A program made the position numbers and the translations under genes. From Minisyncoccota bacterium (GTDB taxonomy: Bacteria > Patescibacteriota > Minisyncoccia > Phycocordibacterales > UBA9973), in NCBI GenBank assembly GCA_021734995.1, contig JAIPHX010000004.1:18115-82114 (forward strand): a stretch of DNA of 64,000 nt, written 5' to 3'. The notes under the pieces are model-generated. The model searched no databases and was not told where the DNA came from. It was given only the letters and a program-made list of their open reading frames with translations. Positions 40,132 through 57,038 of this stretch are shown piece by piece; the stretch's first letter is position 1; the number at the start of each line of letters is the position of its first letter.

Positions 40132-40135
40132 ATCT

Positions 40136-42055: not shown

Positions 42056-42090
42056 AATTTTATTTTAAATTAAACTTATAATATATATAA

Positions 42091-42170
42091 AAATAAAGGT
42101 TTTATTATATTTATACCTTTATTTTGCGACCGCAAAATACTTGTCAAAAGTAGTATATATGATATACTAC
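42091..42170. promoter_or_regulatory. cluster of perfect palindromes in the dnaK / PaaX-like divergent region (candidate operators)
   Basis: AAATAAAGGT…ACCTTTATTT (10-bp arms, 42091-42124); TTTTGCG-ac-CGCAAAA (42123-42138); GTAGTATAT-atg-ATATACTAC (42150-42170), the last ending 5 nt before the 42175 ORF start. Confidence 0.35.
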
Positions 42171-42174
42171 CCCT

Positions 42175-42693
42175 ATGTCAAGTAAATCAGACTATTCCAA
42201 AAAAATATTAGGTATTTTAGGCCAAAAAACAGCCATCTCTTTAGAGAATATCAAAAAAGGAGAAGACTCTAAAGCGAAATATGCTCTGACTAGATCTGTA
42301 AAAAATATGATTGAAGGAGGATTGGCTGAAATACACAAATCTACCAACCAAACTTTTTTAAAAATCACCCCAAAAGGTAAAGCAAAATTAAATTGTCTAA
42401 AATTAGAAGGTAAGGATGCTTTGGTTTCCAATTCTTGGGATGGTATGTGGAGGATTATTATTTTAGACATGCCAGAAACTAGAAAAAATGAGCGTGATAG
42501 TTTAAGATATATATTAAAGAAGGCAAATTTTGTTTGTATTAAAAATACTGTATGGGTATCCCCTTTCCCTTATGAACATTTGTTCTATAATTTAAAGAAG
42601 GACTTAGGATTATCCACAGAACTTATCATTATCGTCACAAACAAAGTAGACGATGATACTGCCAAAAATTTTTTGGAATCAATAAAATCATGA
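42175..42693 (+). CDS. winged-helix regulator, PaaX-family-like C-terminal domain
   Basis: N-terminal wHTH-like segment; C-terminal W.GMWRIIILDMPETRKNERDSLRYILKKANF…NTVWVSP matches the PaaX_C-type pattern (W.G.W…D.PE..R..RD.LR…GF…SVW.SP). Confidence 0.4.
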   Translation: MSSKSDYSKKILGILGQKTAISLENIKKGEDSKAKYALTRSVKNMIEGGLAEIHKSTNQTFLKITPKGKAKLNCLKLEGKDALVSNSWDGMWRIIILDMPETRKNERDSLRYILKKANFVCIKNTVWVSPFPYEHLFYNLKKDLGLSTELIIIVTNKVDDDTAKNFLESIKS

Positions 42694-43379
42694 AGATACA
42701 TAGATTTATCGGGGATTACAATTTGAATAAAGATTTCATTACTATTACTGATCTATCTCAAGTAAAGCAAATTAAAAATGTTTTAAAGTTAAATATTAAT
42801 GAACACATTTTTTTATCGGATGGGATGGGAAAAGAAATTGAAGCAGAAATTCAAAATATTCAAAAAGAACAAATTATGGTAAAAAAAGTAGTGGAAATTA
42901 TTACAGAAAAAGAAAATAAAAAAGTGAACTTGTATCTTGCTATCTTAAAGAAAGAAAACTTTGAATTAGCCGTCCAAAAAGCAGTAGAATGTGGCGTGTC
43001 AGAAATCACACCAATTTTAACAAAAAGAACAATAAAGACAGGTATCAAGAAAGATAGGCTTGAAAAAATAATCAAAGAGGCATGTGAACAATCTGGAAGA
43101 AATATTATTCCAAAAATAAATGAAATTACAACTTTTGAAAATGCATTACAAGAAGGACAAAAAAACGATCGTAAGGTGATTTTTCATTTTTCCAAAGAAG
43201 AATACTCAAATATCCCTGATATCAAAAGCATCGCTATATTTATAGGGCCAGAAGGTGGTTTTACTGATACTGAAATATCATTTGCAAGAGAACAAAAATA
43301 TGAAATTTGCTCTTTAGGTGACCATACACTACGAGCTGAGACTGCTTGTATTGTAGGGAGTTATCTTGCTTGCCACTAA
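42690..43379 (+). CDS. rsmE: 16S rRNA (uracil1498-N3)-methyltransferase RsmE
   Basis: PUA-like N-terminus and SPOUT C-terminus with IFIGPEGGFT; 229 aa; HRF at the N-terminus. Confidence 0.7.
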   Translation: MKIHRFIGDYNLNKDFITITDLSQVKQIKNVLKLNINEHIFLSDGMGKEIEAEIQNIQKEQIMVKKVVEIITEKENKKVNLYLAILKKENFELAVQKAVECGVSEITPILTKRTIKTGIKKDRLEKIIKEACEQSGRNIIPKINEITTFENALQEGQKNDRKVIFHFSKEEYSNIPDIKSIAIFIGPEGGFTDTEISFAREQKYEICSLGDHTLRAETACIVGSYLACH

Positions 43380-45115
43380 TACACCTCTTTATTATAACAC
43401 CCCTCACAATACACTATCTCTGGTCTATCTGGAGCATATGAGGTTTCGAATTCATTTGAGCACTCTTTTGTTCCGTTTGTATGCATATGTGCTTCTTTAT
43501 CACACATACAAGAGCGGTGCCAGAGTTTCATTGGGTTTCTTTTTGATAGTCTTTCGTAGTGTCTACAATTGGGACAGGTGTTTGGAACAGGAATTTTATT
43601 TTTTTTATAAAAAGACAACTCACTCTCTGTAAGTTTAAAAGCTTCAGTACATTTATGTTCACACTTACCTAAGTGTGAACAACCTATAATATTATTTAAT
43701 ATAGTATCATCAACATCTTTAATATTATCTGGTATACCTTGTGAAGGCAAATCTATCCTATAGTTCCTCTCTTCATCATCTTTCCATTTAAAACAAAGAT
43801 CTAGGGCAATATTTTTATTCAAAGGAAAAAATTCTTGAGCAGTTGATTCATTGTACGAAAAAGGAGACAGATCATATGGAAAGAATTCTCCATATTTATA
43901 TATTCTATTTTTTTTATCAATATATGGATTAGAATTCATTTCTTCTTTAATCTTTTCAATTAAAATTTGGTATTCCTCTTTTGTGTATTGTTTATTTAAA
44001 ATACAATATGACTTTTTTTGCAGAGAAATACAACCAAAAAGAAAAGAAGACCCTTTACACATTTCTGAATATTCTACATTGTTTGAGGTATCTACCACAT
44101 GCACAAACTTTGTATTTGATACTTCTTCAGGGCTCATCGCTTCATATACATATTGACTATTACCCATACCATAACAATCGTATATTTCTTTTGAGGAAAA
44201 AACCCATGCAGAGTATCTACTATTCTCTAGATCAAAACCATCAAATACCATTTTCGAATTTTTAGTATTTACTAGATTATCTCCTGTAGAATTTTGACAA
44301 CTTACTAAGTTTCCGTATTTATGTATAGATTGTTTTTTAATATTATCAAAAAGTTTTTTATACTCATCAATAATCTTTTTTGAACCTAAATCAATTTCCT
44401 TTAATCTTTCGAGATAAGCATCTTTTGAAAGATTTTCTCCCATAAACGTATATGAACTATTTCTTTTATTTATAATTCCAAAACAATTAGAGATATTTCT
44501 AGAGTTTGAAACAAAATAAGAATCAATCAATGCTTCAGATTTTTCTGAATAAAATGTATTATATGATTTTTCAACATTAAAAGCTTCGTATAAATTCTCT
44601 GAATAATGAGAATAAACTACGTCCATACATTTTTTTAAATTAACTGCTCTAGCTACATACATACAATCTTCTGAATCTCTAAACCCGTAAGAAAGATAGC
44701 AATTTTTGTTATTGTATGATTGGTTGGTATATGGCGAATTTGTACATTGTACAGTCCAAATACCCAATCTGGGTACTTTTAGTTGTAATTCTCTAAATAA
44801 TTCGAAAAAAGATTTTAAATTATCATATTCAATTCCAAAATCTATTGGATCCCAATTATCGCTATACCAACAATCTCTACAATATATCGTATAACATGAA
44901 TCTTTGGGGTACAAAGAAATGAAAGATTTTTTACATAAATCACAATCTCTTTTATACAAAGACCTTTCATTTCTCCACATAAATCTCCTCTGCATCCTAC
45001 ACTCCGGACAAAAAGTAGGTGGTGGTACCTTGATTTTTTGATAGAAAAGAAAGTCTTCTGACTCTATCATAAAGTCATTTTTGCAATTTTGACAGTTTTT
45101 AGTTTCTGGTGGCAT
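43376..45115 (-). CDS. Cys-rich paralogue family protein 1 (N- and C-terminal zinc-ribbon motifs, duplicated Cys-repeat core)
   Basis: N-terminal CQNCKNDFMIESEDFLFYQKIKVPPPTFCPECR and C-terminal LCPNCRHYERLSKRNPMKLWHRSCMCD…EIVYCEGCYNKEVY; about 30 Cys. Member of a six-gene family in this window. Confidence 0.6.
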   Translation of the reverse strand: MPPETKNCQNCKNDFMIESEDFLFYQKIKVPPPTFCPECRMQRRFMWRNERSLYKRDCDLCKKSFISLYPKDSCYTIYCRDCWYSDNWDPIDFGIEYDNLKSFFELFRELQLKVPRLGIWTVQCTNSPYTNQSYNNKNCYLSYGFRDSEDCMYVARAVNLKKCMDVVYSHYSENLYEAFNVEKSYNTFYSEKSEALIDSYFVSNSRNISNCFGIINKRNSSYTFMGENLSKDAYLERLKEIDLGSKKIIDEYKKLFDNIKKQSIHKYGNLVSCQNSTGDNLVNTKNSKMVFDGFDLENSRYSAWVFSSKEIYDCYGMGNSQYVYEAMSPEEVSNTKFVHVVDTSNNVEYSEMCKGSSFLFGCISLQKKSYCILNKQYTKEEYQILIEKIKEEMNSNPYIDKKNRIYKYGEFFPYDLSPFSYNESTAQEFFPLNKNIALDLCFKWKDDEERNYRIDLPSQGIPDNIKDVDDTILNNIIGCSHLGKCEHKCTEAFKLTESELSFYKKNKIPVPNTCPNCRHYERLSKRNPMKLWHRSCMCDKEAHMHTNGTKECSNEFETSYAPDRPEIVYCEGCYNKEVY

Positions 45116-45149
45116 ATATTAAAAGTATATATAATAAAGGGTAATTAGT

Positions 45150-46892
45150 CTAATACACCTCTTTATTATAACACCCTTCACAGTACACTATCTCTGGTCT
45201 ATCTGGAGCATATGAGGTTTCGAATTCTTCTGTGCACTTCCCTACATGTCCATGTTTGTCTTTATCACACATACAAGAGCGGTGCCAGAGTTTCATTGGG
45301 TTTCTTTTTGATAGTCTTTCATAGTGTCTACAATTGGGACAGAGCCTAGGGAGTGGTAGATTCATACGTTTGTAGAATTGTAATTCTTCAGGAATTATCT
45401 TGAAAGCTTCAGTACACTGATGGTTACAATCTTTGTGTTGACACTCAATGACTTTGTTAATAATGAAATCATCTAAATCTTTAATATTATCAGGGATATC
45501 TTCTGTTTTAATATCTATTGTATAGTTTCTTTCTTCTTTATCTTTCCATTCATATCCTTGTTCTTTTGCTTGTTCTTTAATTAAAGGAAAGAATTCTTGA
45601 GCGATTGTTTCATTGTAGGCAAATGGACTTAATTCACTTGGAAAGAATTCTCCATACTTATATACTCTCCCCTTACTATCTATGTATGGCATATCATTCA
45701 TGTGTTTTATTATTTTAGGAACTAGATCTTCATATTCTTCTTTGGTGTATTGTTTGTTTAGAATGCAGTATTGTTTGTTACGGAGGCCGATGCAGGCAAA
45801 GAGATTAGAACAAGATTTACACATCATGGAGTACGTTAAATTATGACTTACATCGATAGAGAAAGTGAACAAATTTGTATTTGGAGAAAAACCACAACCC
45901 ACACTTTCGTAAACAAGTTCTCCGTTGGCAACGCCATGTACATCATAAACATCTTTACATCCTTTTAAAACTCGCATACTGTAAGCTACATTTTCTGAAG
46001 AAGTTACATCAAAAGATTTTTTAACATTTTTTGAATTCACAATATTATTACCTTTAGAATTTAATGAATTTCTTATTTCAGCATATTTATGAGGTACAGA
46101 ATTCTTCATGCTATAAAAATCTTTTTTAAGCTTCTCGTTAACTACATATGACCCAAAGTCCATTTTATTTATTAAACTATTATATTCTTTAACACTTAAT
46201 TGTTTATTGTAAAAAAAGTTACTGGCATTAATTAAATTAGATGACATGAAACATTGGTTGATATTTGAACTTTTAAAAATAAATTTTGAGTGTATGCCTT
46301 CTTTAACTTGTTGTAAATAACTACATTCATTATTGTGGTAACTATCTAGTGAATTAGAGCATAATTCTGAGTCTTGCAACCAGTCAGAATCAAAACAATT
46401 ATGTAATCCAGAAGAGTTTGAACAATATAACGAGTCTTGACTTTCAATAACAGAAAAACACATATAACAATCTTTAACATTACCATTATAATTTCCATAT
46501 TCACTATTTAACTGTTTACCTTTTGTGTCTGCTGGTATTAACGGCACTTTTTTAAATAATTCATAAAATTGTTCAAAGAACGGATTTGAAAAATTATATT
46601 CTTTTGCATAAAATAGAGGATCCCATCTATCTCCCCACCAACAATCATGACAATAAACCTTAAATAAAGTTTCTTGATAATAATTTGTAACAAACTTTTT
46701 ATTACATAAATCACATCTTTTATGATACAAGTTTCTCTCATTTCTGAAATTCATCCTGCGTACCATCCTACACTCCGGACAAAAAGTAGGTGGTGGTACC
46801 TTGATTTTTTGATAGAAAAGAAAGTCTTCTGACTCTATCATAAAGTCATTTTTGCAATTTTGACAGTTTTTAGTTTCTGATGTCATATACAA
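45150..46892 (-). CDS. Cys-rich paralogue family protein 2
   Basis: Same terminal motifs; core diverged from paralogue 1. The termini (~110 bp at the 5' end, ~170 bp at the 3' end) are near-identical at the DNA level. Confidence 0.6.
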   Translation of the reverse strand: MYMTSETKNCQNCKNDFMIESEDFLFYQKIKVPPPTFCPECRMVRRMNFRNERNLYHKRCDLCNKKFVTNYYQETLFKVYCHDCWWGDRWDPLFYAKEYNFSNPFFEQFYELFKKVPLIPADTKGKQLNSEYGNYNGNVKDCYMCFSVIESQDSLYCSNSSGLHNCFDSDWLQDSELCSNSLDSYHNNECSYLQQVKEGIHSKFIFKSSNINQCFMSSNLINASNFFYNKQLSVKEYNSLINKMDFGSYVVNEKLKKDFYSMKNSVPHKYAEIRNSLNSKGNNIVNSKNVKKSFDVTSSENVAYSMRVLKGCKDVYDVHGVANGELVYESVGCGFSPNTNLFTFSIDVSHNLTYSMMCKSCSNLFACIGLRNKQYCILNKQYTKEEYEDLVPKIIKHMNDMPYIDSKGRVYKYGEFFPSELSPFAYNETIAQEFFPLIKEQAKEQGYEWKDKEERNYTIDIKTEDIPDNIKDLDDFIINKVIECQHKDCNHQCTEAFKIIPEELQFYKRMNLPLPRLCPNCRHYERLSKRNPMKLWHRSCMCDKDKHGHVGKCTEEFETSYAPDRPEIVYCEGCYNKEVY

Positions 46893-46913
46893 GTTATATT
46901 AAAACAATCCCAG

Positions 46914-47831
46914 CTAGAAATCAATCAGCAATATATTCTTTCCTTTTGAGTGACCTTTTTTTTGATATTTTAAAGCTTTTTTAAAGTGTTTAATATTAAA
47001 ATACTTATCCACAACAACCTTTATTGTTCCTTTTCCAATAAGTTTAACGATCTGCCCCAAGTCTTTTGAATCTGAATGAAACAAAAAATGCTTAGCTAAA
47101 ATATCATATCCTTCCAAATCTTCACTAGTTGGTTTTCCATTTATTGATAAATATTTTCCACCTTTCTTTAATACCTTAAAAAGAGTACTCTTCATTGAAA
47201 CACTATCAAGAACACAATCAAGATCTTTTATCTTATTAAAACTTGAAGTGTTGGTATAGTCTAAAATCTCATCAGCCCCAATATTATATAAAAACTTATG
47301 GTTTTTCTTTGAAGCAGAAGTATACACATACGCCCCTTTCCATTTAGCAAACTGTATTGCAAACAAACCCACTCCTCCAGCCCCAGCAGTTATAAATATC
47401 TTTTGTCCTTTTTTTAAATTAAGTTCTTTAAATAGAGATTGCCAAGCTGTCAGACTAGCCAAAGGAATTGATGCTGATTTTAAAAGAGATATATTTAATG
47501 GTTTTTTATATATATACATCTCTTTCGTCACTATGTATTCAGCACAAGCCCCCTGTTTCAACCATTCAAGAGATCCAATTACTTTATCTCCTTTTTTATA
47601 TTTTTTTATTTTTTTACCAACCTTAACAGCAACACCAGAAAAATCACTACCTAAAATATATGGCTTTTTAAATATATTATATTCTATTCCTTTCCAATCT
47701 ACAGGGTTTAATCCAACAGCTTTTACTTTAATTAAAATTTCATTATTTAAAATATCAGGGATAGGAATTCTTTTTATTCTTATATAGTTTCCTGATATAT
47801 TTTTATCTACAAAAATAGCTTTCATAATCAA
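46914..47831 (-). CDS. zinc-type/MDR-superfamily NAD(P)H-dependent oxidoreductase (quinone oxidoreductase-like)
   Basis: GroES-like N-terminus; Rossmann motif ITAGAGGVGLFAIQFAKWKGAYVY. Confidence 0.7.
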   Translation of the reverse strand: MIMKAIFVDKNISGNYIRIKRIPIPDILNNEILIKVKAVGLNPVDWKGIEYNIFKKPYILGSDFSGVAVKVGKKIKKYKKGDKVIGSLEWLKQGACAEYIVTKEMYIYKKPLNISLLKSASIPLASLTAWQSLFKELNLKKGQKIFITAGAGGVGLFAIQFAKWKGAYVYTSASKKNHKFLYNIGADEILDYTNTSSFNKIKDLDCVLDSVSMKSTLFKVLKKGGKYLSINGKPTSEDLEGYDILAKHFLFHSDSKDLGQIVKLIGKGTIKVVVDKYFNIKHFKKALKYQKKGHSKGKNILLIDF

Positions 47832-47833
47832 TT

Positions 47834-48556
47834 TTACAAAAAGCTTTTAAACCAAACCAATGTATTCTTAAACAATGAATTTTGTACAACATCTGAGTCA
47901 TTAAAAAGGTGTGTAGCCTTCGGGATAATTTTGAATTTTTTCTGATTTAAATTAAACTTATAATAATTAAAAGCTTTTTTAACCAATGTTCCATTACCAG
48001 CAACAGCAACTAAGATGGGACATTTGAAATTTTTGGCTAAAAAATCCCATTTTAAGTTATTTGTTTCATCAATTAATTTTTTACTAAAAACAGTTGTAAG
48101 CCCCCAAGGCATGATATAACCATCTAATTCTTTAATATATTTACCTATCTTTTTATTAAACATAAATTTATAAGACGGGTCCCATAGAGCAACAGCATCA
48201 AAATTTTGATCTTTGGAAGAAAAGATAACAGGACCTCCAAAACTATGCCCAACAATAAACACCTTTTGAAAACCAAGTTTACGAAAATATCTAACTGTTT
48301 GATCAACATCAAAACCGGAAGTTTTTAAATCACAGTCTATGAATTGACGCGCTTTCGGTCTCCAATCATAAAGATTCAAACGAAAAGTGGCAAATCCATT
48401 ATCCGCAAAAAAGTTAACAGCATCATGAATTAATTTTTCTTCCATATCTCCTGTAAGACCATGAACTATCACAAATAAAGGCTTAGCAAAATCCCCTTTT
48501 AATTTTCCATATAAATATACATCTTTAGCGACTTTAATTTTTACTAATTTTTCCAT
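47834..48556 (-). CDS. alpha/beta-fold hydrolase
   Basis: Nucleophile elbow GHSFGG (IVGHSFGGPV); 240 aa; start is 2 nt after the oxidoreductase stop. Confidence 0.6.
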   Translation of the reverse strand: MEKLVKIKVAKDVYLYGKLKGDFAKPLFVIVHGLTGDMEEKLIHDAVNFFADNGFATFRLNLYDWRPKARQFIDCDLKTSGFDVDQTVRYFRKLGFQKVFIVGHSFGGPVIFSSKDQNFDAVALWDPSYKFMFNKKIGKYIKELDGYIMPWGLTTVFSKKLIDETNNLKWDFLAKNFKCPILVAVAGNGTLVKKAFNYYKFNLNQKKFKIIPKATHLFNDSDVVQNSLFKNTLVWFKSFL

Positions 48557-48577
48557 TTTAAAATATATACTTTTTAA

Positions 48578-50305
48578 TTAATACACCTCTTTATTATAAC
48601 ACCCCTCACAATATACTATCTCTGGTCTATCTGGAGCATATGAGGTTTCGAATTCTTCTGTGCACTTCCCTGCATGCCCATGTTTGTCTTTGTCACACAT
48701 ACAAGAACGGTGCCAGAGTTTCATTGGGTTTAATCTCTCTAATCTTTTTTTATACCTTTCATCTTGATGCAATCTAGGTAAAGGTAAATCCATTCTCTTA
48801 TAAAATTCAAATTCTGATTGTAAAATGCGATAAGATTTCCCTGAAACAGAACATTGAATAATATGTTCAGTAATATCTTCTTTTGTATCCTTTATATCAA
48901 TTGGTAATTCCTCAGCTTTAATTGTCGGCATGTATCTTTTTACCTCTACTTCTCCATAATCTATACCAAACTTTGTTAAAAATTCTTTATCTTTTGGCAT
49001 TAAATCAAATAATACTGATTCAGTATAACTAAAAGGAGAAAATTCTGGAGGGAAAAATTCTCCATATTTATAAATATGTCCAACTTTACCAACATAAGGC
49101 ATATCATTCATATGCTTTTTAATTTTCTCTATCATTTCAAAATATTTTTCCTTAGAATACTGTTTATTTAAAATACAATATTGCTTATTTTTTAAACCTA
49201 CACAACCAAAAAGATCAGCCGAGGAACCACAATAATCAGTATATTCTGAGTTTATTAATGCTGGCATACCATAAATAGTAAAAAACAAATTATTACCGAG
49301 ATCTGAACCCCCTGTAGCATGTTCATAAATTAATTCACCTCTACCTTTATGTGTTACATCCATAGCATCTTTTAATCCTCCTGGACATCTAAAACCATAT
49401 TTTACATTTTCAACACCGGCACAAGAAAAACAATATTTTGCATTTTTAGAAGAGAAAATATTATCTCCCGTAGAGTTAATAGAATTTAAAATATGACCAT
49501 ATTGTCTTGGCAATTTTAAATTAAATTTATAAAATTCTTTTTGGAAATTAACCAAAGTTTCATAATTACCTAAATTTAAATCTTTCAACTTTTTTTCATA
49601 TTCCTCTTTAGAATACTGTTCATTTAAAATACAAAATCTTTTGTTTCGTAAATTAACACAACCTATACAATCTTGACAATTTCTACAATTAATTAAAAAC
49701 CGAGAAGAAACACAGTTACTAGAAAAATCACAAAAAGCACAATCATAATTTTTAGTAGAATCGATACACTCATAAATAATATTACTATCTTGAGCTAAAT
49801 ATGTATCGTAAATATCTTTTGATTTTGATATATTATTTGAATAAAAAATATTTTCAGAATCCCAAATAACAGAATATGAAAGATAAACATTTTTTACATC
49901 TTGAATCATATTGGCATACTCAGAATTTATATTCTTGCCGTTTTGCCCTACTGCTGGACGAGGAACATTTTTAAATAATTCATTAAATTGAGTAAAAAAA
50001 TCTTTATTAAAATCAACGTCTAAAGCATAGGTTTGTGGATCCCATTCATCTTTTTTCCAACAGTCTACACAATATACATTAAAAATAGATTCTGGACTAT
50101 AAACAGAAATAGTCTTTTTGCTACACAATGCACAATTTCTATGATACAACCTTCTTTCGTTTCTCCAAATCAATCTTCTAAAGAACCTACACTCCGGACA
50201 AAAAGTAGGTGGTGGTACTTTGATCTTTTGATAGAAAAGAAAGTCTTCTGACTCTATTATAAAGTCATTTTTGCAGTTTTGGCAGTTTTTAGTTTCTGGT
50301 GACAT
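48578..50305 (-). CDS. Cys-rich paralogue family protein 3
   Basis: Same terminal zinc-ribbon motifs; internal CxxCxxCxxC (CRNCQDCIGC); duplicated …C.LN.QYSKEEY… modules. Confidence 0.6.
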   Translation of the reverse strand: MSPETKNCQNCKNDFIIESEDFLFYQKIKVPPPTFCPECRFFRRLIWRNERRLYHRNCALCSKKTISVYSPESIFNVYCVDCWKKDEWDPQTYALDVDFNKDFFTQFNELFKNVPRPAVGQNGKNINSEYANMIQDVKNVYLSYSVIWDSENIFYSNNISKSKDIYDTYLAQDSNIIYECIDSTKNYDCAFCDFSSNCVSSRFLINCRNCQDCIGCVNLRNKRFCILNEQYSKEEYEKKLKDLNLGNYETLVNFQKEFYKFNLKLPRQYGHILNSINSTGDNIFSSKNAKYCFSCAGVENVKYGFRCPGGLKDAMDVTHKGRGELIYEHATGGSDLGNNLFFTIYGMPALINSEYTDYCGSSADLFGCVGLKNKQYCILNKQYSKEKYFEMIEKIKKHMNDMPYVGKVGHIYKYGEFFPPEFSPFSYTESVLFDLMPKDKEFLTKFGIDYGEVEVKRYMPTIKAEELPIDIKDTKEDITEHIIQCSVSGKSYRILQSEFEFYKRMDLPLPRLHQDERYKKRLERLNPMKLWHRSCMCDKDKHGHAGKCTEEFETSYAPDRPEIVYCEGCYNKEVY

Positions 50306-50337
50306 AAATAAAGTATATATAATAAAGGATAATTAAT

Positions 50338-51252
50338 CTAATATTTATCTTCAGGGTACAGATACCTCCTGATCTTAATAGAATAGTCTCCCATATCTCC
50401 TATTTTTTCTGAGATATCTGAAATAAAATATTTTTCTCGAGCTTCTTTGATAGGAAGATCTGTGTCCAATAAACCAACTCTCAGAGCAAGGTCATCAGCT
50501 GAAGCTGTAAGCCATAAACGCCAAGAAAACATTGATATTCTATTTGAAGTTATCTTATTTATATGTCTTACTATACTTGAAGTACAGTTTGCATAAAAAG
50601 TGTTGTACCATGATCTGTCAGTAGAGTTTAGCTCATTCATTCTTTCCAACATATCAACAAGTAACAACCGAGCATTTTTGTTTTCAGTTAATTTCACAGG
50701 ATACACATATACCTTATCTTTTCTAACATTTGCTCTTAAAAGCATTACATCTCTTTCGTCTGCTGGAATATACATCAATGGATACGTATGCAACATCCCC
50801 TTCCAAATACTAAAATTTTGTTCTTTAGTTTTCCGTGCTTCTATGCTAATAGCTAAAAAATCTCCGTTAGTAAACTCAAAAGAAAGAAAAGTATGTGCCG
50901 CAAAAGTAGCTTCATTAAAAGGCTCTGATACATACCACACTTTTTTGATCTCTCTTAAATCATAAGTTTTATCATAATAAGCAGGAATCATATCTTTTTC
51001 TGTAGGAAAATATCTAAAATTTCTGACATTTTTAATAGTCACAAAATCATCATTAAATTCTGCTTTAGCTAAGATAGCTAAATGCTCTTGCCAATCACCT
51101 TCTGTTGGAACTTCTTTGGAAATTTGCCAAAACACAAAAAGACAAAAAATACATATTAAAATATACAAAATTCTAAAAAATAAAGTATTCTTAATAAAAT
51201 TAAATTTTAAATTCATTATCTTACAAATTAATAGACTTCTTTGGTATAACAC
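50338..51252 (-). CDS. membrane-anchored DUF4105/Lnb-like protein
   Basis: N-terminal TM helix; the …WYNTFYANCTSSIV… segment resembles the conserved NCT motif of DUF4105 (Lnb N-acyltransferase-like) proteins. Assignment is tentative. Confidence 0.35.
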   Translation of the reverse strand: MLYQRSLLICKIMNLKFNFIKNTLFFRILYILICIFCLFVFWQISKEVPTEGDWQEHLAILAKAEFNDDFVTIKNVRNFRYFPTEKDMIPAYYDKTYDLREIKKVWYVSEPFNEATFAAHTFLSFEFTNGDFLAISIEARKTKEQNFSIWKGMLHTYPLMYIPADERDVMLLRANVRKDKVYVYPVKLTENKNARLLLVDMLERMNELNSTDRSWYNTFYANCTSSIVRHINKITSNRISMFSWRLWLTASADDLALRVGLLDTDLPIKEAREKYFISDISEKIGDMGDYSIKIRRYLYPEDKY

Positions 51253-52925
51253 CCTTCACAGTACACTATTTCCTTGCTTTCTGGAGCATAAGCTGAATCC
51301 ATTGTCTCTCCGCATTTTGAACAATTAGCTTTATAAAGTCTTTGGGATAAAGTATTTTGGAAACGAACCAGCCTACGACATTCAGGGCATTTTCTAGGAA
51401 TTGCAATATTTAATCTTTTTAATAACTCAAACTCACCTTTTACTATTCTAAAACATTTTCCACATTCACATTTTATAACCTCATTTAAAATATCATTAGA
51501 ATTATTAATATCATTCGGTAGATCAGAATATTTAACAGTAGGAGTATATTCATTTGGAATGGGTTCAAACCATTTTAAGTGATTTTCTTCACATTTTTCT
51601 TTCGTCATAGGAAAATATTGATTTGCCATTGTTTCATTATAAGCAAAAATAGAAAATTCTTCTGGGAAAAATTCTCCGTATTTATATACTAAACCCTTTT
51701 TACTAATATAAGGATTACTGTTCATATTTTTAATAATTTCTTCTTTCAGTTTTAAAAACTCATCTTTTGTATATTGCTTATTTAAAATACAATATTCTTT
51801 TTTCTTTAAATTAACACACCCGAAAGTATTTTTACAAGAAGTAGTGTAATAACAATATTCATTGTTTAATGAATCGGGATAATTCCCAAAAGAAAATTTT
51901 ATATTAGATGCTCCATGCCCTGCTACTGCCACTTCATACATTCTTTCAACATTACCTCCCCAACAAGTATAATCATAAGAATCTTTTGTACGAGGGACTG
52001 AGATCAATTGAACATAACGAGAATCTTCTACGCTAGTTATCATATAAGCATCCTGAGTATTTTTTGATTCATACGCATAATTACCGACTACATTTACATT
52101 CAAACTATTGGTATATAGACACCTATTGGGTAATGTAAGCCAAAAAGCTTTCGCTTCTTCAAGATATTTTAAAATGTTTGAGTATAAATTCAAATTTACT
52201 TTTTTCATAAATTCAAAATATTCTTCTTTGGAGTATTGTTGGTTAAAAATACAATATGATTTTTTCTTTAAATTCATACATCCAAAACAATTAATACAAG
52301 AGGAGCAATTTTTGGAAAATAAAACCTCTACACAGTTATCACATTCTTGAGAAAAAAGAGTTTGGTAACATTTATGCAGGCCCGCAGATTCATAACATAA
52401 TTCTGATTCTTTAATACGAAAACAATCCGCTGAATCTTTTAAACCATCTACAAAATCAGAATAAAAACAATTTTCGGCATAATCCACAAAAAAGCAAAGA
52501 TAACAATTTTTTAAATCAGAAGTATAGTTAGTATATTCACTATTAATTAGCTTGGAATAAGTAGAATCCAAAGACATGAAAGGAGTTTTGTTTATTAATT
52601 CTTCAACTTGCTCTAAAAAAGGACGAGAAGAATCATAATCCATACTATACTCAGTACCATCCCATTTATCAGCCCACCAGCACTTTGAACAAAAAACTTT
52701 TTGTTTCTTGTCTTTGTGAACCATTGAAATAATATTCAAGCCACAGCTATCACAAATTCTTTTATACAAAGAATATATATTCATGAAAGACAGTCTGCGT
52801 TTCAACCTACACTCCGGACAAAAAGTAGGTGGTGGTACCTTAATCTTCTCATAGAAAAGAAAATCTTCCGGCTCTATTATGAAGTCTTTTTTACAGTTTT
52901 GGCAGTTTTTAGTTTCTGGTGGCAT
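51228..52925 (-). CDS. Cys-rich paralogue family protein 4 (divergent C-terminal region)
   Basis: Canonical N-terminus; C-terminus …CSKCGETMDSAYAPESKEIVYCEGCYTKEVY; internal CxxCxxCxxC (CSSCINCFGC). Overlaps the DUF4105-like gene by 25 nt. Confidence 0.6.
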   Translation of the reverse strand: MPPETKNCQNCKKDFIIEPEDFLFYEKIKVPPPTFCPECRLKRRLSFMNIYSLYKRICDSCGLNIISMVHKDKKQKVFCSKCWWADKWDGTEYSMDYDSSRPFLEQVEELINKTPFMSLDSTYSKLINSEYTNYTSDLKNCYLCFFVDYAENCFYSDFVDGLKDSADCFRIKESELCYESAGLHKCYQTLFSQECDNCVEVLFSKNCSSCINCFGCMNLKKKSYCIFNQQYSKEEYFEFMKKVNLNLYSNILKYLEEAKAFWLTLPNRCLYTNSLNVNVVGNYAYESKNTQDAYMITSVEDSRYVQLISVPRTKDSYDYTCWGGNVERMYEVAVAGHGASNIKFSFGNYPDSLNNEYCYYTTSCKNTFGCVNLKKKEYCILNKQYTKDEFLKLKEEIIKNMNSNPYISKKGLVYKYGEFFPEEFSIFAYNETMANQYFPMTKEKCEENHLKWFEPIPNEYTPTVKYSDLPNDINNSNDILNEVIKCECGKCFRIVKGEFELLKRLNIAIPRKCPECRRLVRFQNTLSQRLYKANCSKCGETMDSAYAPESKEIVYCEGCYTKEVY

Positions 52926-52945
52926 AAATATATATAATTTTTTAA

Positions 52946-54688
52946 TTAATACACCTCTTTATTATAACACCCCTCACAATATACTATCTCTGGTCTATCT
53001 GGAGCATATGAGGTTTCGAATTCTTCTGTGCACTTCCCTACATGCCCATGTTTGTCTTTATCACACATACAAGAGCGGTGCCAGAGTTTCATTGGGTTAC
53101 GTTTAGCAAGTCTTTCTTCATGACGGCAAAAAAAACATAACCTAGGTAACGGTACTTTTAATCTTTTGTATAAATTAAATTCTCCTGAAGTAATTTTAAA
53201 AGAACCACGACAATATAAATTATTTTTATCAAAATTTAAACATTGGATTACTTCTTTTAGAATAGAATCATCAACATCAGATAATTTATCTTTTAAATCT
53301 TGAGACTTCATTGTGGGGATATAATCAAGTTTATTTAATTCTTTCCATTTATAACCCAATTCTTGTGCCTTTTCTTTTGTTGATGGAAAATAATCCTGTG
53401 CCTGAGTTTGATTATATGCAAATGGGCTTAATTCCGATGGAAAGAATTCTCCATACTTATATACTCTGCCTTTACTATCTATATATGGCATATCATTCAT
53501 ATGCTTTATTATTTTTGGGACTAATTCTTCGTATTCTTCTTTAGTGTATTGTTTGTTTAAAATACAATATTTTTTGTTACGGAGACCAATGCAAGCGAAT
53601 AGATTATTTGAATTATAACAATTGAAAGAATACTGCACTTCAGAAGAGTAATATACCACACTGCAAAAATACAAAGAAACCCCTCCTGCATCAAAAAACT
53701 CATAATTATTTTCAGACAAAAATACTCCTGGTCCACCATCATAACAATCTTTTGAATTAAAACCTCCCCAATGAACATATTTTGAATTTTCTAAAATATC
53801 CGTACAATCAAAACAATATTGAGAATTTTTTACATCTATTAGATTGTCACCTGAAGAATTTAAAGTATTTACTTTAAAATTAGCCCGATGCAAAGATTGC
53901 AAATACAAGCTTAAAAATTTTTCTTTTAATGCTTGGACATTTTTATAACTATCCAAATCAATCTCCGAAATTCTTTTTTTATATTCTTCAGCGCTCAACT
54001 GTTCATTCCACATACAATACGACTTACTTCTTAGGTTTGTACAACCCAGACAATCTGTACAATTAACACAATCATATAAGAAATAAGAATCAACACAGTT
54101 TTTTGATTGTATTGAGTACAAAAGATGATATGAATCAGAAATTGCTACAGAATCAAAACACAATTCAGAATTATTTATGATATAACAATCAATACAATCT
54201 TTAATCTTCCTAACTCTATTTAAATAAAAACTATTTTCTATTCCCCAAGAACCAGAACACATATAGCTATCTTTGGACTCATGTGCAATATTACAATAAT
54301 CTGAATTAACAGCGCTAGAGTTAGATAATGCCTGAAATGGTACATTGTTTCTAAATTCATTCCATTGTTCAAAAAAAGATTTTGAAAAATCATAATCTAC
54401 CCCAAAACTCATAGAGTCCCATTCATCCCCCCACCAATATTGATTATCGTAAATTTTAATTTCAGATTCTGGTGGATATAAACTAATTAATTTTTCATTA
54501 TGCCCAGGAATATTACAATCTTTTTTAAAAAGATTCATTTCATTTCGCCAGCATAAACGTCTGACCATTCTACACTCCGGACAAAAAGTAGGTGGTGGCA
54601 CCTTAATCTTCTCATAGAAAAGAAAATCTTCCGGCTCTATTATGAAGTCGTTTTTGCAATTTTGACAGTTTTTAGTTTCTTGTAGCAT
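52946..54688 (-). CDS. Cys-rich paralogue family protein 5
   Basis: Same termini as paralogues 2 and 3; internal CVNCTDCLGC. Confidence 0.6.
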   Translation of the reverse strand: MLQETKNCQNCKNDFIIEPEDFLFYEKIKVPPPTFCPECRMVRRLCWRNEMNLFKKDCNIPGHNEKLISLYPPESEIKIYDNQYWWGDEWDSMSFGVDYDFSKSFFEQWNEFRNNVPFQALSNSSAVNSDYCNIAHESKDSYMCSGSWGIENSFYLNRVRKIKDCIDCYIINNSELCFDSVAISDSYHLLYSIQSKNCVDSYFLYDCVNCTDCLGCTNLRSKSYCMWNEQLSAEEYKKRISEIDLDSYKNVQALKEKFLSLYLQSLHRANFKVNTLNSSGDNLIDVKNSQYCFDCTDILENSKYVHWGGFNSKDCYDGGPGVFLSENNYEFFDAGGVSLYFCSVVYYSSEVQYSFNCYNSNNLFACIGLRNKKYCILNKQYTKEEYEELVPKIIKHMNDMPYIDSKGRVYKYGEFFPSELSPFAYNQTQAQDYFPSTKEKAQELGYKWKELNKLDYIPTMKSQDLKDKLSDVDDSILKEVIQCLNFDKNNLYCRGSFKITSGEFNLYKRLKVPLPRLCFFCRHEERLAKRNPMKLWHRSCMCDKDKHGHVGKCTEEFETSYAPDRPEIVYCEGCYNKEVY

Positions 54689-54702
54689 TTTATAAATATT
54701 TT

Positions 54703-56370
54703 TTAACTTATATTTTGTTTATAACAATCTTCACAAGCAATTTTTTGATAATTCCATTTTACATCATAAAAAGCAGTAATTTCTTTTTTACAAAATGTAC
54801 AGTAGTATAAATATGGATTCAAAACAGAAAAAAGCTTAAACTGATTTTTAATTCTAAGATCAAAATGATATCTCGGTAATGGAATATTATTTTCTTTATA
54901 AAATGCAAGCTCATTTCTAGCAACATTAAATCTCCAACCAGTTTCTTTGCATATGAGTGCTTTTGTAATAATATCATCCTCCACATCTTTTATATGGTCT
55001 GGTAAATCATCAGTAGATAGTCCTTCAATATGAGCCTCATTTATAGTAAGCCAGTACCCTCCCAAAGATTTTATTTCTTTTTCTTCTGTCTCTTGAAAAT
55101 AAAAATAAGCAGTTGATAAATTAAACGGACATAAGCTCATGTTATATGGCAGAAATTTGCCATATTCTCCTCTTGCCTTCATATCATTAATAATCTTATT
55201 TTTTAAATGATAAAATTCTTCTTCAGAATATTGCTTGTTTAAAATACAATATTTTTGTTTTTTGAGACCGACACATCCAAAACAAGAATCACATTCAACA
55301 CACAAATCAAGATATTCAGAATTTCTGGAAGAAGACCATATTGAATATTTTAAAGAGTAAGCTTGCACACAACAACTACAATTTCCCAGAAGCTCTGAAT
55401 GCCAGCATCCATCTGCATCAATATTTGACTTATTTTTAAGACCTCGAGTACAATTAAAACATTCTTCAGAATCAGATACTGTATTGCAATTATGACAATC
55501 CTTGGTAGACATAAGATAATTTCCAAAAGAATTTTGCACTTTTAAATTAAAGTTTTCTCTATGTACCACTTCTTTTTGAATTATTTCGTGAAATCTTTTT
55601 TTTAATTCTTGAACATTATCATAAGAACCTAAATCATATTCTTTTAGTTTATTTTCATACTCTTCTTTTGAATATTGCACATTTTCTATACAAAATCGTT
55701 TATTTCTTAAATTCCAAGACATAAAACAATCTTGACAATTTCTACAATCATATAAAAAATATGAATCTATACAATCTTTTGAATGATATGAATAAAAAAC
55801 CTTAAAACAATTGGAACAATCAGAAATTTCATAACATTTTTCAGAAGTATAAGAGACAATAGAATCAATACTATTTTTAACCTTAATATTTCTATAAGAA
55901 TAATATAAATTCTCACATTCTTCCATTGCCCTAGATAAATAACAATTTTTTGAACTCCATACATCATCACACCATTCACAATTAGTATTACTAGAACCCA
56001 TTTGGTGAGGTCTCGGAATTTTTTCTTGAAGTTCTTTTAGTTGTTCAAAAAAAGAACGAGATGGATTATAATCGCATCCATAATCTTTCGCATCCCATTT
56101 ATCTCCATACCATTCAGAGATAGAATAAATCGGGTATCTTGCATTTTCAGGCAAAATAGTGATTAATCCATCTCCAGATAAATCAGAAGTTCCTTTTCTA
56201 AATTTTCCAAAAACCCAAAAAGACAAATGTTGCTTTAATCTACACTGATGACACGTAGTTGGAATTTCAGTTTGAGTTTTAGCATACAAGTTTAATTCCC
56301 CTATTTCTATAGTAAAATTTTTTTGACAATACTGACAAATCTTATTCTCCTTTTGTGCCTTTATATTCAT
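54703..56370 (-). CDS. Cys-rich paralogue family protein 6 (most divergent member)
   Basis: N-terminal CQYCQKNFTIEIGELNLYAK…TCHQCR; internal CRNCQDC; C-terminal …YYCTFCKK…IACEDCY. The start overlaps the grpE 3' end by 29 nt. Confidence 0.55.
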   Translation of the reverse strand: MNIKAQKENKICQYCQKNFTIEIGELNLYAKTQTEIPTTCHQCRLKQHLSFWVFGKFRKGTSDLSGDGLITILPENARYPIYSISEWYGDKWDAKDYGCDYNPSRSFFEQLKELQEKIPRPHQMGSSNTNCEWCDDVWSSKNCYLSRAMEECENLYYSYRNIKVKNSIDSIVSYTSEKCYEISDCSNCFKVFYSYHSKDCIDSYFLYDCRNCQDCFMSWNLRNKRFCIENVQYSKEEYENKLKEYDLGSYDNVQELKKRFHEIIQKEVVHRENFNLKVQNSFGNYLMSTKDCHNCNTVSDSEECFNCTRGLKNKSNIDADGCWHSELLGNCSCCVQAYSLKYSIWSSSRNSEYLDLCVECDSCFGCVGLKKQKYCILNKQYSEEEFYHLKNKIINDMKARGEYGKFLPYNMSLCPFNLSTAYFYFQETEEKEIKSLGGYWLTINEAHIEGLSTDDLPDHIKDVEDDIITKALICKETGWRFNVARNELAFYKENNIPLPRYHFDLRIKNQFKLFSVLNPYLYYCTFCKKEITAFYDVKWNYQKIACEDCYKQNIS

Positions 56371-57007: not shown

Positions 57008-57038
57008 AAAACAAAAAGCCCCTTGTGAGGGCTTTTTT
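57008..57038 (-). terminator. intrinsic terminator downstream of rpsI
   Basis: AGCCCcttgtgaGGGCT hairpin with a U-run on the minus strand, between the rpsI stop and the grpE start. Confidence 0.45.

Follow-up and report, generated by a model that had tools for sequence, protein, structure and literature searches.

Organization of the Locus

The window (the whole 64-kb stretch of DNA analyzed here) contains six co-directional ORFs for Cys-rich proteins of 555–580 aa, all on the minus strand, referred to below as p1–p6 and, as a family, as FAM. They are homologous end to end (32–52% identity to the first, with ~70 invariant columns in the alignment), as a first-pass annotation of this DNA had recognized, and lie in a ten-gene co-directional block opened by grpE (56342..56983, minus strand), whose 3′ end overlaps the start of p6 by 29 nt. 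Reading from grpE, the minus-strand copies are p6 (54703..56370; 555 aa), of the divergent subfamily “D” and without zinc sites 2 and 3; p5 (52946..54688; 580 aa), without zinc site 2; p4 (51228..52925; 565 aa), with all four zinc sites and a shorter C-terminal tail; p3 (48578..50305; 575 aa), in which zinc site 3 is lost; p2 (45150..46892; 580 aa), the copy whose structure was modeled and a 100% match to GenBank MCF7833847.1 ([quoted passage not shown]); and p1 (43376..45115; 579 aa), the final gene of the block, convergent with rsmE. Upstream of grpE, between it and rpsI, a terminator-like hairpin (57013..57037, minus strand; a 10-bp stem, then a T run) suggests that grpE-FAM is a separate transcription unit beginning here.

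The six genes had been described as an unusual tandem array of tightly packed copies. The array is not purely tandem: three unrelated genes, for an MDR/zinc-ADH-like oxidoreductase (46914-47831), an alpha/beta-hydrolase (47834-48556) and an Lnb_N membrane protein (50338-51252), are interspersed, and the reported gaps of 2–34 nt hold for the ten-gene block from grpE to the last paralog rather than for six adjoining copies. Nor is such clustering unusual for this lineage, since 47 of 83 loci have at least two copies and one has nine. As observation the first-pass annotation is partly confirmed, and as interpretation partly supported; it overlooked the most informative feature, a dnaK/dnaJ/ATPase cluster (35155-42055) outside the region it had considered.

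Architecture of the FAM Proteins

The AlphaFold model of p2 (pLDDT 89, pTM 0.88) indicates one compact body. It comprises, all on the minus strand, an N-terminal zinc-finger pair (residues 6–86; 46635..46877), zf_Tbcl-like and then zf_Tbcl_2-like with CxxC-x17-CxxC; a predicted beta-solenoid with cap and helix (residues 121–245; 46158..46532), its strands modeled at a 6-residue period; a second predicted solenoid with the invariant cap YCILNKQYTKEEY and helix (residues 267–400; 45693..46094); a strongly conserved acidic middle domain (residues 403–480; 45453..45686) with the near-invariant columns ...YKYGEFFPxELSPFxYNET...; and a C-terminal zinc-finger pair (residues 481–580; 45153..45452). 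Both ends of each FAM protein have the fingers in the same order, zf_Tbcl-like followed by zf_Tbcl_2-like, and the two pairs are homologous (hhalign probability 99.2%, E 1e-19). So are the solenoid halves (probability 99.9%, E 2e-33): the duplicated module noticed earlier is present, with ...YCILNKQY(T/S)KEEY and a degenerate first copy ~145 residues upstream, and the Cys units of ~10–13 residues in the core are, in the model, rungs of the predicted beta-solenoid. The zinc-finger pairs have net charges of +1.9 and +2.0 and a conserved basic helix, CPxCRxxRRxxxRNER; the remainder is acidic (solenoids -2.7 and -0.5, middle domain -5.2). A search for fold relatives of the middle domain found none, and a structure search with FAM found no similar solved structure beyond generic solenoids. 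There are no hydrophobic segments in p1–p6 (maximum Kyte-Doolittle 19-residue mean ≤1.03), in agreement with the earlier view that the proteins lack signal peptides and are probably cytoplasmic.

All six paralogs have the N-terminal CxxC...CxxC and, at the extreme C-terminus, the four-Cys site, and zinc sites 1 and 4 are 97–100% conserved among 180 full-length FAM members. Many members can dispense with sites 2 and 3: p5 and p6 have lost the second N-terminal site, and the second ribbon near the C-terminus (LCPNCR...), attributed to all six, is kept in four and missing from p3 and p6. Likewise, four paralogs end in the “nearly invariant tail”; the tails of p4 and p6 are shorter and divergent. 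Each paralog has 29–37 Cys in total, with up to 16–17 ligands and 11–27 other Cys per protein; the core has these 11–27 in place of the 25–30 that had been counted there, and the CxxCxxCxxC block said to be frequent there is absent from p1 and p2. Core Cys are exchanged for S/L/V/M/G/I in many members, two window paralogs included, a pattern more in keeping with buried ladder positions than with obligate metal ligands, so that the “metal-binding module” is established for the terminal ends only. There, conserved Cys and kinship to zf_Tbcl and zf_Tbcl_2 support it; in the alignments the CxxC pairs of the termini look like zinc sites, and they are probably occupied by zinc. Zinc binding by two small Methanosarcina proteins with a zf_Tbcl_2-type domain was found by ICP-MS (PMC12704099).

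These two domains (zf_Tbcl, PF13451; zf_Tbcl_2, PF23477, NCBIfam TIGR04272, CxxC-x17-CxxC) are small treble-clef zinc fingers to which no function has been assigned. FAM resembles them in its two CxxC knuckles (C..C..F.I...E..FY......P..CP.CR, then C..C-x17-C..C), but stays below the gathering scores: the best matches, both in p4, reach 23.9 bits against 27 for zf_Tbcl_2 and 16.3 against 24 for zf_Tbcl, and for the two models only 14 and 8 of 77 members reach E ≤0.01. The domains span ~80 of 580 residues at each FAM end and are silent on the 400-residue body. For that body, known beta-solenoid proteins (curli CsgA 8c50, ryegrass and budworm ice-binding proteins, left-handed beta-helix acyltransferases) offer little guide, with identities to FAM of 4–8% and Foldseek TM-scores ≤0.10; a Pfam search gave no hexapeptide or pentapeptide matches. 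Unlike these proteins, FAM looks cytoplasmic, with a duplicated and capped solenoid and zinc fingers on either side, and nothing indicates amyloid fiber formation, ice binding or acyl transfer.

Distribution and Age of the Paralogs

Clustered at 50% identity, FAM falls into at least 2,293 groups, nearly all of Patescibacteria/Parcubacteria origin; it runs to thousands of copies, almost confined to tiny-genome Parcubacteria, with at least 11 on one 672-kb contig. In one genome, copies lie beside rpsO, purB, scpB and ftsW/murG. The family is uncharacterized, as proposed earlier: no whole-protein model covers it in Pfam, NCBIfam, PADLOC, PHROG or PDB, and database labels are “hypothetical,” “uncharacterized” or “zinc-binding domain-containing.”

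The core regions of p1–p6 are 45–66% identical to proteins of other genomes and 31–43% identical among themselves; judged by sequence, the paralogs are anciently diverged, each being closer to foreign proteins than to its neighbors. Co-resident paralogs have identities of 0.61 at the N-terminus, 0.56 at the C-terminus and 0.36 in the solenoid core, as compared with a core identity of 0.59 for nearest-core counterparts at other loci (presumed orthologs). The extreme case is subfamily D (p6), whose core shares 66% identity with the closest foreign protein and 31–36% with co-resident paralogs; it occurs as one copy per locus, directly following grpE in six loci.

The Chaperone-ATPase Cluster

The cluster consists of dnaK (40136..42055), genes for a long (765 aa; 37764..40061) and a short (481 aa; 36287..37732) soluble VirD4/TraD/HerA-like ATPase, and dnaJ (35155..36246), all on the minus strand. 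Divergent from dnaK is a small PaaX_M-like protein gene (42175..42693, plus strand), a recurrent cluster member and possible regulator, with strong, divergent promoter-like sites at 42141-42181. The recurrent gene order is grpE-FAM(n)-dnaK-long ATPase-FAM(n)-short ATPase-dnaJ; CutA1 (a divalent-ion tolerance protein) also recurs in the cluster, and cysS, an AI-2E transporter gene, recR and dnaB recur around dnaK. ATPases of this type are the most enriched FAM neighbors, with 44 genes in 30 of 83 loci, 31 of them directly adjoining a FAM gene and all 31 of these pairs co-directional, counts that come from related genomes and hence are not independent evidence. In a second sampling, 80 metagenome loci gathered from the short ATPase independently of the FAM sampling, FAM was present in 61 (33 of 36 among loci of at least 12 kb), the order being dnaK, long ATPase, FAM (0–4 copies), short ATPase and dnaJ, the last following the short ATPase in 69 of the 80. 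The cassette of long ATPase, FAM copies and short ATPase is also found in a second context, after a membrane protein, “c9,” instead of dnaK, and a c9-like domain can be fused to the ATPase (L020, phrog_5156).

The short ATPase is 65–90% identical across loci. In matched genomes it equals DnaK in conservation (0.88, vs. 0.84 for DnaK), and subfamily D reaches 0.61–0.63, vs. 0.72 for GrpE, values that indicate a core role in the cell rather than an arms race.

In the long ATPase, the ATPase domain leads into a zf_Tbcl_2 finger, beyond which a disordered tether rich in K and E runs to a conserved peptide at the C-terminus (TrwB_AAD_bind 40.2 bits, DUF87 29.3, TraG-D_C 26.4, zf_Tbcl_2 52.6). Both ATPases exceed the Pfam gathering scores of TrwB_AAD_bind and TraG-D_C, and the short one alone that of T4SS-DNA_transf; both fall far below all curated NCBIfam coupling-protein models, with weak matches that include the DNA-translocating ATPase CedD. 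The finger (residues 457–481, CSSCGNATKVPFKPEKGRPVYCKDC; 38619..38693, minus strand) is a full-scoring zf_Tbcl_2 of the same type as FAM zinc site 2 (hhalign probability 96.3%, E 2e-9), and a bona fide one is present in 16 of 17 long ATPases. Downstream, there is a low-complexity tether of 140–330 aa, closed by (K/R)EVPEDVLRKILE in 49 of 50 long ATPases; no other ORF has this peptide. In the window the extreme C-terminal peptide is EVPEDVLRKILG (37767..37802, minus strand), a candidate docking motif. In F-plasmid TraD and Legionella DotL, C-terminal tails recruit partners, and the long ATPase resembles both in its disordered C-terminal extension with an invariant end peptide.

Possible Roles

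A conserved cluster of DnaK chaperone genes with two conjugation-type ATPases points to an undescribed cellular machine. The reading that we tentatively favor, as possible rather than probable, is that the paralogs are adaptor or specificity subunits docking on the two ATPases. Each FAM protein is, in the model, a rigid body, with two homologous capped beta-solenoids, an acidic middle domain and a zinc-finger pair per end, and the paralogs would be interchangeable recognition or adaptor subunits of one machine, driven by the two soluble VirD4/TraD-like ATPases of the grpE-dnaK-dnaJ cluster as its motors. The conserved zinc-finger ends may give all paralogs the same handle for docking onto the motor complex, to which the long ATPase would contribute the same finger type and a disordered tether with its invariant terminal peptide. 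Solenoid faces are variable among paralogs and conserved within an orthologous group, which suggests that each paralog may have its own target; that the paralogs dock physically and act as adaptors, and what they recognize, we infer. Several points count against adaptors: the common finger may reflect a common ligand (e.g., nucleic acid) rather than mutual docking; 42 of 79 FAM loci have neither ATPase nor chaperone gene within 10 kb; the six window paralogs sit in the grpE unit, with none between the ATPases; and all FAM matches to zf_Tbcl and zf_Tbcl_2 are under the Pfam gathering scores.

Another possibility is that the paralogs are cargo, which the ATPases would pass to the type IV secretion apparatus of Patescibacteria, or out by some other route, for delivery to the host cell that the bacterium lives on, with DnaK/DnaJ/GrpE possibly keeping them unfolded for export. 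The ATPases do exceed gathering scores of coupling-protein families, a related form is linked or fused to a membrane-anchored protein, the conserved termini could serve as translocation signals, and the copy number on the 672-kb contig represents a heavy investment; CPR genomes also contain thousands of orphan T4CP homologs with no assigned role (10.1101/2025.01.22.634366). This seems quite unlikely, however: the FAM ends are folded zinc fingers rather than charged disordered tails, neither window ATPase has a membrane segment, no VirB4-sized gene lies within the 64-kb window, and the search turned up neither an enzymatic or toxin domain nor a neighbor resembling an immunity gene. Effector repertoires as a rule turn over quickly, whereas the paralogs are old, well-conserved orthologous groups at fixed positions. 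The established type IV coupling systems (VirD4/TrwB/TraD; the TraD tail with TraM; the DotL tail with IcmS-IcmW-LvgA; Xanthomonas XVIPCD effectors) are alike in having a multi-member protein set with conserved ends encoded next to ATPases, but the window ATPases, lacking membrane segments and not near virB4, are inside a dnaK operon and conserved like housekeeping genes, and FAM is unlike the known adaptors, relaxosome proteins and effectors. We consider nucleic-acid binding similarly improbable. In that reading DNA or RNA would be held by the four basic zinc-finger modules, and FAM would serve DNA uptake, segregation or repair, or else RNA handling, together with DNA-translocase-type ATPases. 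In its favor are the net positive charge and basic helix of both finger pairs, the membership of the ATPases in the VirD4/TraD/FtsK-HerA clade, whose characterized members move DNA, along with the weak match to CedD, and the joining of a FAM-type finger to a K/E-rich disordered region in the long ATPase; zf_Tbcl with CxxC-x17-CxxC is found in small RGG-rich proteins and helicase C-termini. It leaves unexplained the need for 6–11 ancient paralogs, and no part in handling nucleic acids is evident for the solenoids and acidic domain, which make up 400 of 580 residues, the solenoids being too weakly acidic for DNA mimics; profile searches detected no known DNA- or RNA-binding domain.

Given the location within the grpE-dnaK-dnaJ cluster, with p6 overlapping grpE, FAM might instead belong to the heat-shock system through zinc or redox state, as a holdase triggered by oxidation or zinc release in the manner of Hsp33 or mycobacterial Ruc, or as a zinc buffer, partnering DnaK/DnaJ/GrpE. 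Abundant Cys and the recurrence of CutA1 would suit this, and zinc-ribbon chaperones co-regulated with DnaK are reported as a precedent (PMC7448276). The Cys4 sites, the chaperone link and the cytoplasmic location are indeed shared with the DnaJ zinc-finger domain, Hsp33 and M. tuberculosis Ruc/Rv0991c, but FAM has no sequence or fold similarity to them, has no J-domain and is far larger, rigid and multi-paralogous. The redox chaperones described to date are small proteins that turn disordered on activation, unlike a large rigid duplicated solenoid in which zinc sites 2 and 3 are often dispensable. With the ATPase-FAM cassette also found away from dnaK, after c9, many FAM copies distant from any chaperone gene, and no CIRCE element present on search, this role is very unlikely. 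The adaptor reading has finally to be set against there being no link to the neighbors at all, FAM having an independent cytoplasmic role (e.g., structural scaffold) and a position inherited through the synteny of related genomes. We regard this as rather unlikely, although about half of the loci lack such neighbors, copies are scattered among unrelated housekeeping genes, and gene order around dnaK is conserved over many genes regardless. The association persists across two genomic contexts and when sampled from the ATPase side, and the long ATPase and FAM have a specific zinc-finger type in common. The number of FAM copies between the ATPases moreover varies from 0 to 4 while the flanks are fixed, which suggests a location that is maintained rather than frozen.

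Six Paralogs in a Ten-Gene Block

Positions 43376-56370 hold six minus-strand ORFs of 555-580 aa (p1, 43376-45115; p2, 45150-46892; p3, 48578-50305; p4, 51228-52925; p5, 52946-54688; p6, 54703-56370), which align end to end with 32-52% identity to the first and about 70 invariant columns. The first-pass annotation had described a tandem array of six tightly packed copies. The ORFs are indeed homologous and co-directional, but the array is not clean, as three unrelated genes lie within it: an MDR/zinc-ADH-like oxidoreductase (46914-47831), an alpha/beta-hydrolase (47834-48556), and a membrane protein with an Lnb_N (DUF4105-type) domain (50338-51252), each 2-32 nt from its neighbors or overlapping them. 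The packing reported earlier (gaps of 2-34 nt) holds with gaps of at most 34 nt, but across a co-directional block of ten genes that comprises the six paralogs, the three interspersed genes, and grpE (56342-56983), whose 3' end overlaps p6, the first paralog, by 29 nt. A terminator-like hairpin (57013-57037) lies between this block and the upstream ribosomal-protein genes; Rfam and tRNA scans of the region gave no match.

The interspersed genes were rejected as partners of the family because they are singletons that do not recur in other loci; they therefore look like lineage-specific insertions. A mobile or selfish element was also considered for the paralogs and rejected: element ends would not fit into gaps of at most 34 nt, the paralogs keep stable orthologous positions, and there is no transposase or nuclease domain.

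Predicted Architecture and Cysteine Conservation

An AlphaFold2 model of p2, built on a 77-sequence alignment (pLDDT 89.0, pTM 0.88), predicts a pair of small zinc-finger modules (residues 6-86), a first beta-solenoid (~121-228) with a cap and helices closing it, a second beta-solenoid closed by an invariant YCILNKQYTKEEY and a helix (~267-378), a conserved acidic domain (403-480), and two further zinc-finger modules (481-580). The solenoid halves are homologous to each other (hhalign probability 99.9%, E 2e-33), as are the N- and C-terminal zinc-finger pairs (99.2%, E 1e-19). Treble-clef fingers and the beta-solenoid are known fold types. None of the six paralogs has a hydrophobic segment. 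The possibility that the solenoids are DNA mimics was rejected because their net charges are merely -2.7 and -0.5.

Each paralog has 29-37 cysteines, 11-27 of them in the core. The metal-binding cysteine pattern proposed earlier stands for the outermost fingers but not for the core. Among 180 full-length members, the cysteines of site 1, the first N-terminal finger, are 97-98% conserved and those of site 4, the last C-terminal one, 99-100%; site 3 is retained in 87%, and only 56% have a complete site 2. Of the window paralogs, p5 and p6 have lost site 2, and p3 and p6 site 3. Core cysteines are 42-97% conserved, with S, L, V, M, G, or I as substitutes (p1 and p2 included), and the CxxCxxCxxC block, complete in only 115 of the 180, is missing from p1 and p2, with replacements by S, L, V, or M. 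An obligate, family-wide iron-sulfur or metal cluster in the core was rejected because hydrophobic or small residues can take the place of these cysteines; we read them as buried ladder residues of the solenoid, and an accessory metal site could still exist in the core of some members.

Comparison with Known Families

No curated model spans the whole protein: searches with Pfam, NCBIfam, PADLOC, and PHROGs profiles gave only sub-threshold matches to the terminal zinc fingers, which bears out the earlier impression that no characterized family is recognizable. A PDB sequence search matched only the tail, weakly, to LIM domains (E 0.007).

The N-terminal ribbon had been likened to the pattern C..C..F.I...E..FY...P.P..CP.CR, and this likeness is borne out. 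The two-CxxC-knuckle motif of zf_Tbcl (PF13451), F.I...E..FY...P..CP.CR, is present in the family; all six paralogs have C8, C11, C36, C39, F15, I17, E18, Y25, and P33 in common, and the four motif cysteines are 97-98% conserved (n=180). The best zf_Tbcl score in the window is 16.3 bits (p4, residues 5-44), below the gathering score of 24 bits; family-wide, 14 of 77 members reach E <= 0.01 (best 2.7e-5). For zf_Tbcl_2 (PF23477; gathering score 27 bits) the top matches are p4 residues 529-563 at 23.9 bits and p3 residues 51-86 at 17.5 bits, and TIGR04272 (CxxC-x17-CxxC; 36 bits) gives 21.8 bits, all under the cut-offs. Zinc binding by the CxxC-x17-CxxC type has been measured by ICP-MS in two small Methanosarcina mazei proteins only (PMC12704099).

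Two known kinds of protein that had been raised as possible identities, a radical-SAM maturase and a repeat adhesin, find no support: Pfam and NCBIfam profile searches gave no Radical_SAM match, and there is no signal peptide, membrane anchor, or adhesin profile match. The lack of a signal peptide or anchor applies equally to a secreted Cys-rich surface protein. Nor does the family resemble iron-sulfur ferredoxins (no Fer4 match, ligand cysteines not strictly conserved), and neither a profile match nor close structural superposition connects it to hexapeptide (left-handed beta-helix) or pentapeptide repeats. An anti-phage role is not indicated by PADLOC, which gave no match to the family and just weak mad8/HerA matches to the neighboring ATPases; the well-conserved family genes, in fixed housekeeping contexts, argue against it. 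Polymorphic toxins or effectors fit poorly as well, since both ends are conserved and the middle falls into old orthologous groups; gaps of at most 34 nt hold no small cognate (immunity-type) gene.

Distribution and Age of the Family

A word-indexed search returned at least 7,430 relatives, the top matches full-length, 50-60% identical, and all named "hypothetical"; an HMM scan of 1.84 billion cluster representatives gave 2,293 clusters at E < 1e-30, and a GTDB scan in which each species was represented by one genome confirmed at least 576 loci. Nearly all of the matches listed in the latter are labeled Patescibacteria (Paceibacterota; Nomura-, Giovannoni-, Staskawicz-, Lipton-, and Sungbacteria), and the many "uncultured Candidatus Saccharibacteria" labels among them may be generic. 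In UniProt, members go by the names "Uncharacterized" or "Zinc-binding domain-containing protein"; a Candidatus Pacebacteria MAG in GenBank encodes a protein identical to p2. A phage family was rejected, as 2.9 million viral contigs yielded no member except one 30-aa fragment at a contig end.

Two contigs carry other labels, Burkholderiales and Gammaproteobacteria. These are L004 (JAMPXW010000002.1, 267 kb), which bears a Parcubacteria-type cluster of ATPase, family genes, dnaJ, and an AI-2E transporter gene, and L078, a 2.2-kb contig with a family gene; both are probably mis-binned or mislabeled MAG contigs.

Multiple copies are common: 47 of 83 loci of ~20 kb have at least two, and one has nine. 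On a 672-kb contig (GCA_028718635.1), at least 11 copies in four regions occupy roughly 19 kb, or ~2.8%. In the core (residues 95-480), the window paralogs are 45-66% identical to their nearest foreign protein vs. 31-43% to their neighbors, and over 144 proteins core identity is 0.36 between co-resident paralogs vs. 0.59 to the nearest foreign counterpart. A recent lineage-specific expansion or arms-race diversification was rejected because every paralog resembles foreign counterparts more than it resembles its neighbors. Subfamily D, the group of p6, is single-copy and directly follows grpE in six loci; in matched genomes its identity is 0.61-0.63, vs. 0.72 for GrpE. Overall conservation is about that of ribosomal protein S4. 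Judging by the core identities, the position of subfamily D, and the GrpE comparison, the family is an old, constrained set of specialized paralogs, not a fast-diversifying one.

At the two termini, identities to co-resident paralogs and to the nearest foreign counterpart are 0.61 vs. 0.68 and 0.56 vs. 0.65; these similar values led us to reject family-wide concerted evolution of the termini. Within this genome, the last 89 nt of p1, p2, p3, and p5 (43376-43464, 45150-45238, 48578-48666, and 52946-53034) are 94-100% identical, and the first ~90 nt are also highly similar, while the protein cores are 34-43% identical; in the shared ends nearly all synonymous codons are identical. This suggests local gene conversion in this genome, and is not a pattern of the family at large.

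Two Soluble ATPases Related to Coupling Proteins

Two VirD4/TraD/HerA-like ATPases are encoded in the window, a long one (37764-40061, 765 aa) and a short one (36287-37732, 481 aa). Both exceed the Pfam cut-offs for coupling-protein domains (short and long ATPase, respectively: TrwB_AAD_bind, 27.5 and 40.2 bits, cut-off 20.5; TraG-D_C, 24.7 and 26.4 bits, cut-off 22), and the short one also that for T4SS-DNA_transf (22.4 bits, cut-off 20.1); a neighbor ATPase is likewise above the DUF87 gathering score. All matches to NCBIfam coupling-protein models are far under their cut-offs (e.g., 50.7 bits vs. 250). Walker A, GKSG(T/V)GK(S/T), and Walker B, YVDEFQN, are intact in both. Neither has an N-terminal transmembrane anchor (maximum 19-residue hydropathy 1.01 and 1.13); their P-loops begin at residues 42-71. 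The short ATPase is 65-90% identical across loci and, in matched genomes, conserved like DnaK (0.88 vs. 0.84).

Directly after its ATPase domain the long protein carries a zinc finger, CSxCGxxTxVPFxPxxGRPVYCKxC, in 16 of 17 cases; the window copy passes the gathering scores of both zf_Tbcl_2 (52.6 bits) and TIGR04272 (56.2 bits). Fifty such fingers align by hhalign with site 2 of the Cys-rich family (probability 96.3%, E 1.9e-9) and more weakly with site 4 (73.5%, E 3e-5). Past the finger, a K/E/P-rich low-complexity tether of 140-330 aa leads to a C-terminal (K/R)EVPEDVLRKILE (37767-37802 in the window), which is found in 49 of 50 sequences, the C-termini being those of loci L012-L161, and in no other ORF. 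Short ATPases end in EAEPMI in 76 of 102 cases, most of the others having close E-P-(M/L)-I variants. Both C-terminal peptides look like candidate docking motifs for a partner.

Gene Neighborhoods

When all neighbors were clustered across 83 family loci, the most enriched was a P-loop ATPase, with 44 genes in 30 loci. Thirty-one of these directly abut a family gene, always co-directionally (31/31), and the median gap over adjacent family-ATPase and family-family pairs is 34 nt. The recurrent order is rpoA-rplQ-rplM-rpsI-grpE, a variable number of family genes, a PaaX_M-like gene on the opposite strand, dnaK, the long ATPase, again a variable number of family genes, the short ATPase, and dnaJ. 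In the window, dnaJ (35155-36246) is followed by the short and long ATPases, dnaK (40136-42055), the PaaX_M-like gene (42175-42693), rsmE, the family block, and grpE. To remove ascertainment bias, metagenome contigs were also searched with the short ATPase: 61 of 80 such loci contain the family (33 of the 36 that are at least 12 kb long), and in 69 of the 80 dnaJ follows the ATPase.

In other genomes the cassette of long ATPase, family copies, and short ATPase follows not dnaK but c9, a protein of ~450 aa that has a single N-terminal membrane helix and matches nothing in Pfam or NCBIfam. Nine loci have c9 ahead of the long ATPase (including L015:807-2156 and L021:6509-7891), and a c9-like domain is fused to an ATPase in L020:9532-12276 (914 aa) and in the phage-derived profile phrog_5156. 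There is no copy in the window. It may be a membrane partner of these ATPases.

The PaaX_M-like protein (172 aa) is encoded divergently from dnaK here (region 42056-42693) and in many other loci, and strong promoter-like sites face both directions at 42141-42181. Because the window contains no CIRCE element, and no hrcA lies beside grpE, this protein may stand in for HrcA as the regulator of the dnaK operon. A gene for CutA1 (divalent-ion tolerance) also recurs in the cluster (L015, L021, L036, L061, L063, and metagenome loci L102-L120), where it stands beside the PaaX_M-like gene or separates family genes from the short ATPase; the window cluster lacks it.

Possible Roles of the Paralogs

The sequences are publicly deposited without annotation, and literature searches turned up no account of either the family or the ATPase-dnaK cluster. 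Architecture, family, and genomic system match no characterized kind; ideas about function come from anatomy and context only. Tentatively, we favor the possibility that the paralogs are adaptor or specificity subunits that dock on an ATPase machine, because they combine a conserved handle with faces that are paralog-specific and conserved among orthologs, because their co-directional linkage to the ATPase pair persists in two genomic contexts, and because the long ATPase, with its tether-and-peptide anatomy, has a finger of the family's type. That the family has no functional link to its neighbors is unlikely; about half of the family loci have none of these neighbors within 10 kb, and the ATPase-centered search recovered the association from the other side. 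Translocated cargo is a still weaker candidate, quite unlikely in our judgment: the motors are of coupling-protein type, and the 64-kb window has no VirB4-sized or other T4SS structural gene. Nucleic-acid-binding partners of DNA-translocase-type motors seem about equally doubtful, the motor type and the terminal fingers standing beside the weakly charged solenoids. A zinc- or redox-linked chaperone function, in keeping with the Hsp70 operon, is improbable; the same ATPase-family cassette also occurs after c9.

A broader possibility, which we consider rather unlikely as a whole, is a previously unknown, Parcubacteria-wide translocation or remodeling machine composed of the Cys-rich paralogs, the two soluble VirD4/TraD-like ATPases (with c9 where present), and DnaK/DnaJ/GrpE. 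Conjugation coupling ATPases would have been exapted, and the zinc-capped solenoid paralogs would be a fixed set of substrate-specific adaptors or delivered proteins for a host-dependent lifestyle. A 2025 preprint counted 5,713 VirD4-type/coupling-protein homologs in 2,918 CPR genomes, only 148 of them near virB4 or a type IV secretion locus, and went no further than saying that they may have been "exapted for other functions" (10.1101/2025.01.22.634366). If such a machine exists, it would account for the thousands of such "orphan" T4CP homologs; conserved linkage to two VirD4-like ATPases inside an Hsp70 operon is a concrete, testable handle on the puzzle. Parcubacteria rank among the most abundant bacteria that remain uncultivated, and a known role is lacking for most of the genes specific to their lineage; this family fills about 2-3% of one 0.67-Mb contig and has an architecture without counterpart among solved structures or curated families. 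If the link to the ATPases is true, conjugation-type motors would have been put to a new use, and zinc-stabilized solenoid adaptors would be a new class; if it is false, structural and biochemical studies still have a large and well-defined target in this family.

Other Genes in the Window

An intein bearing a LAGLIDADG homing-endonuclease domain splits the DnaB replicative helicase (906 aa; 27682-30402). A large serine recombinase lies ~1 kb from the window's only tRNA gene (Trp), and there is also a 690-aa protein resembling PcfJ, whose family is known from a conjugative plasmid, as well as a nucleotidyltransferase toxin of the AbiEii type (coordinates of the set: 1446-2768, 3794-3867, 12569-14641, and 25710-26339); the three protein-coding genes are possible mobile or defense remnants. 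Finally, carA, carB, and an aspartate/ornithine carbamoyltransferase gene (16101-21468), together with a ribose-phosphate pyrophosphokinase gene (24240-25259), represent nucleotide/arginine biosynthesis beyond what is often assumed for such small genomes.
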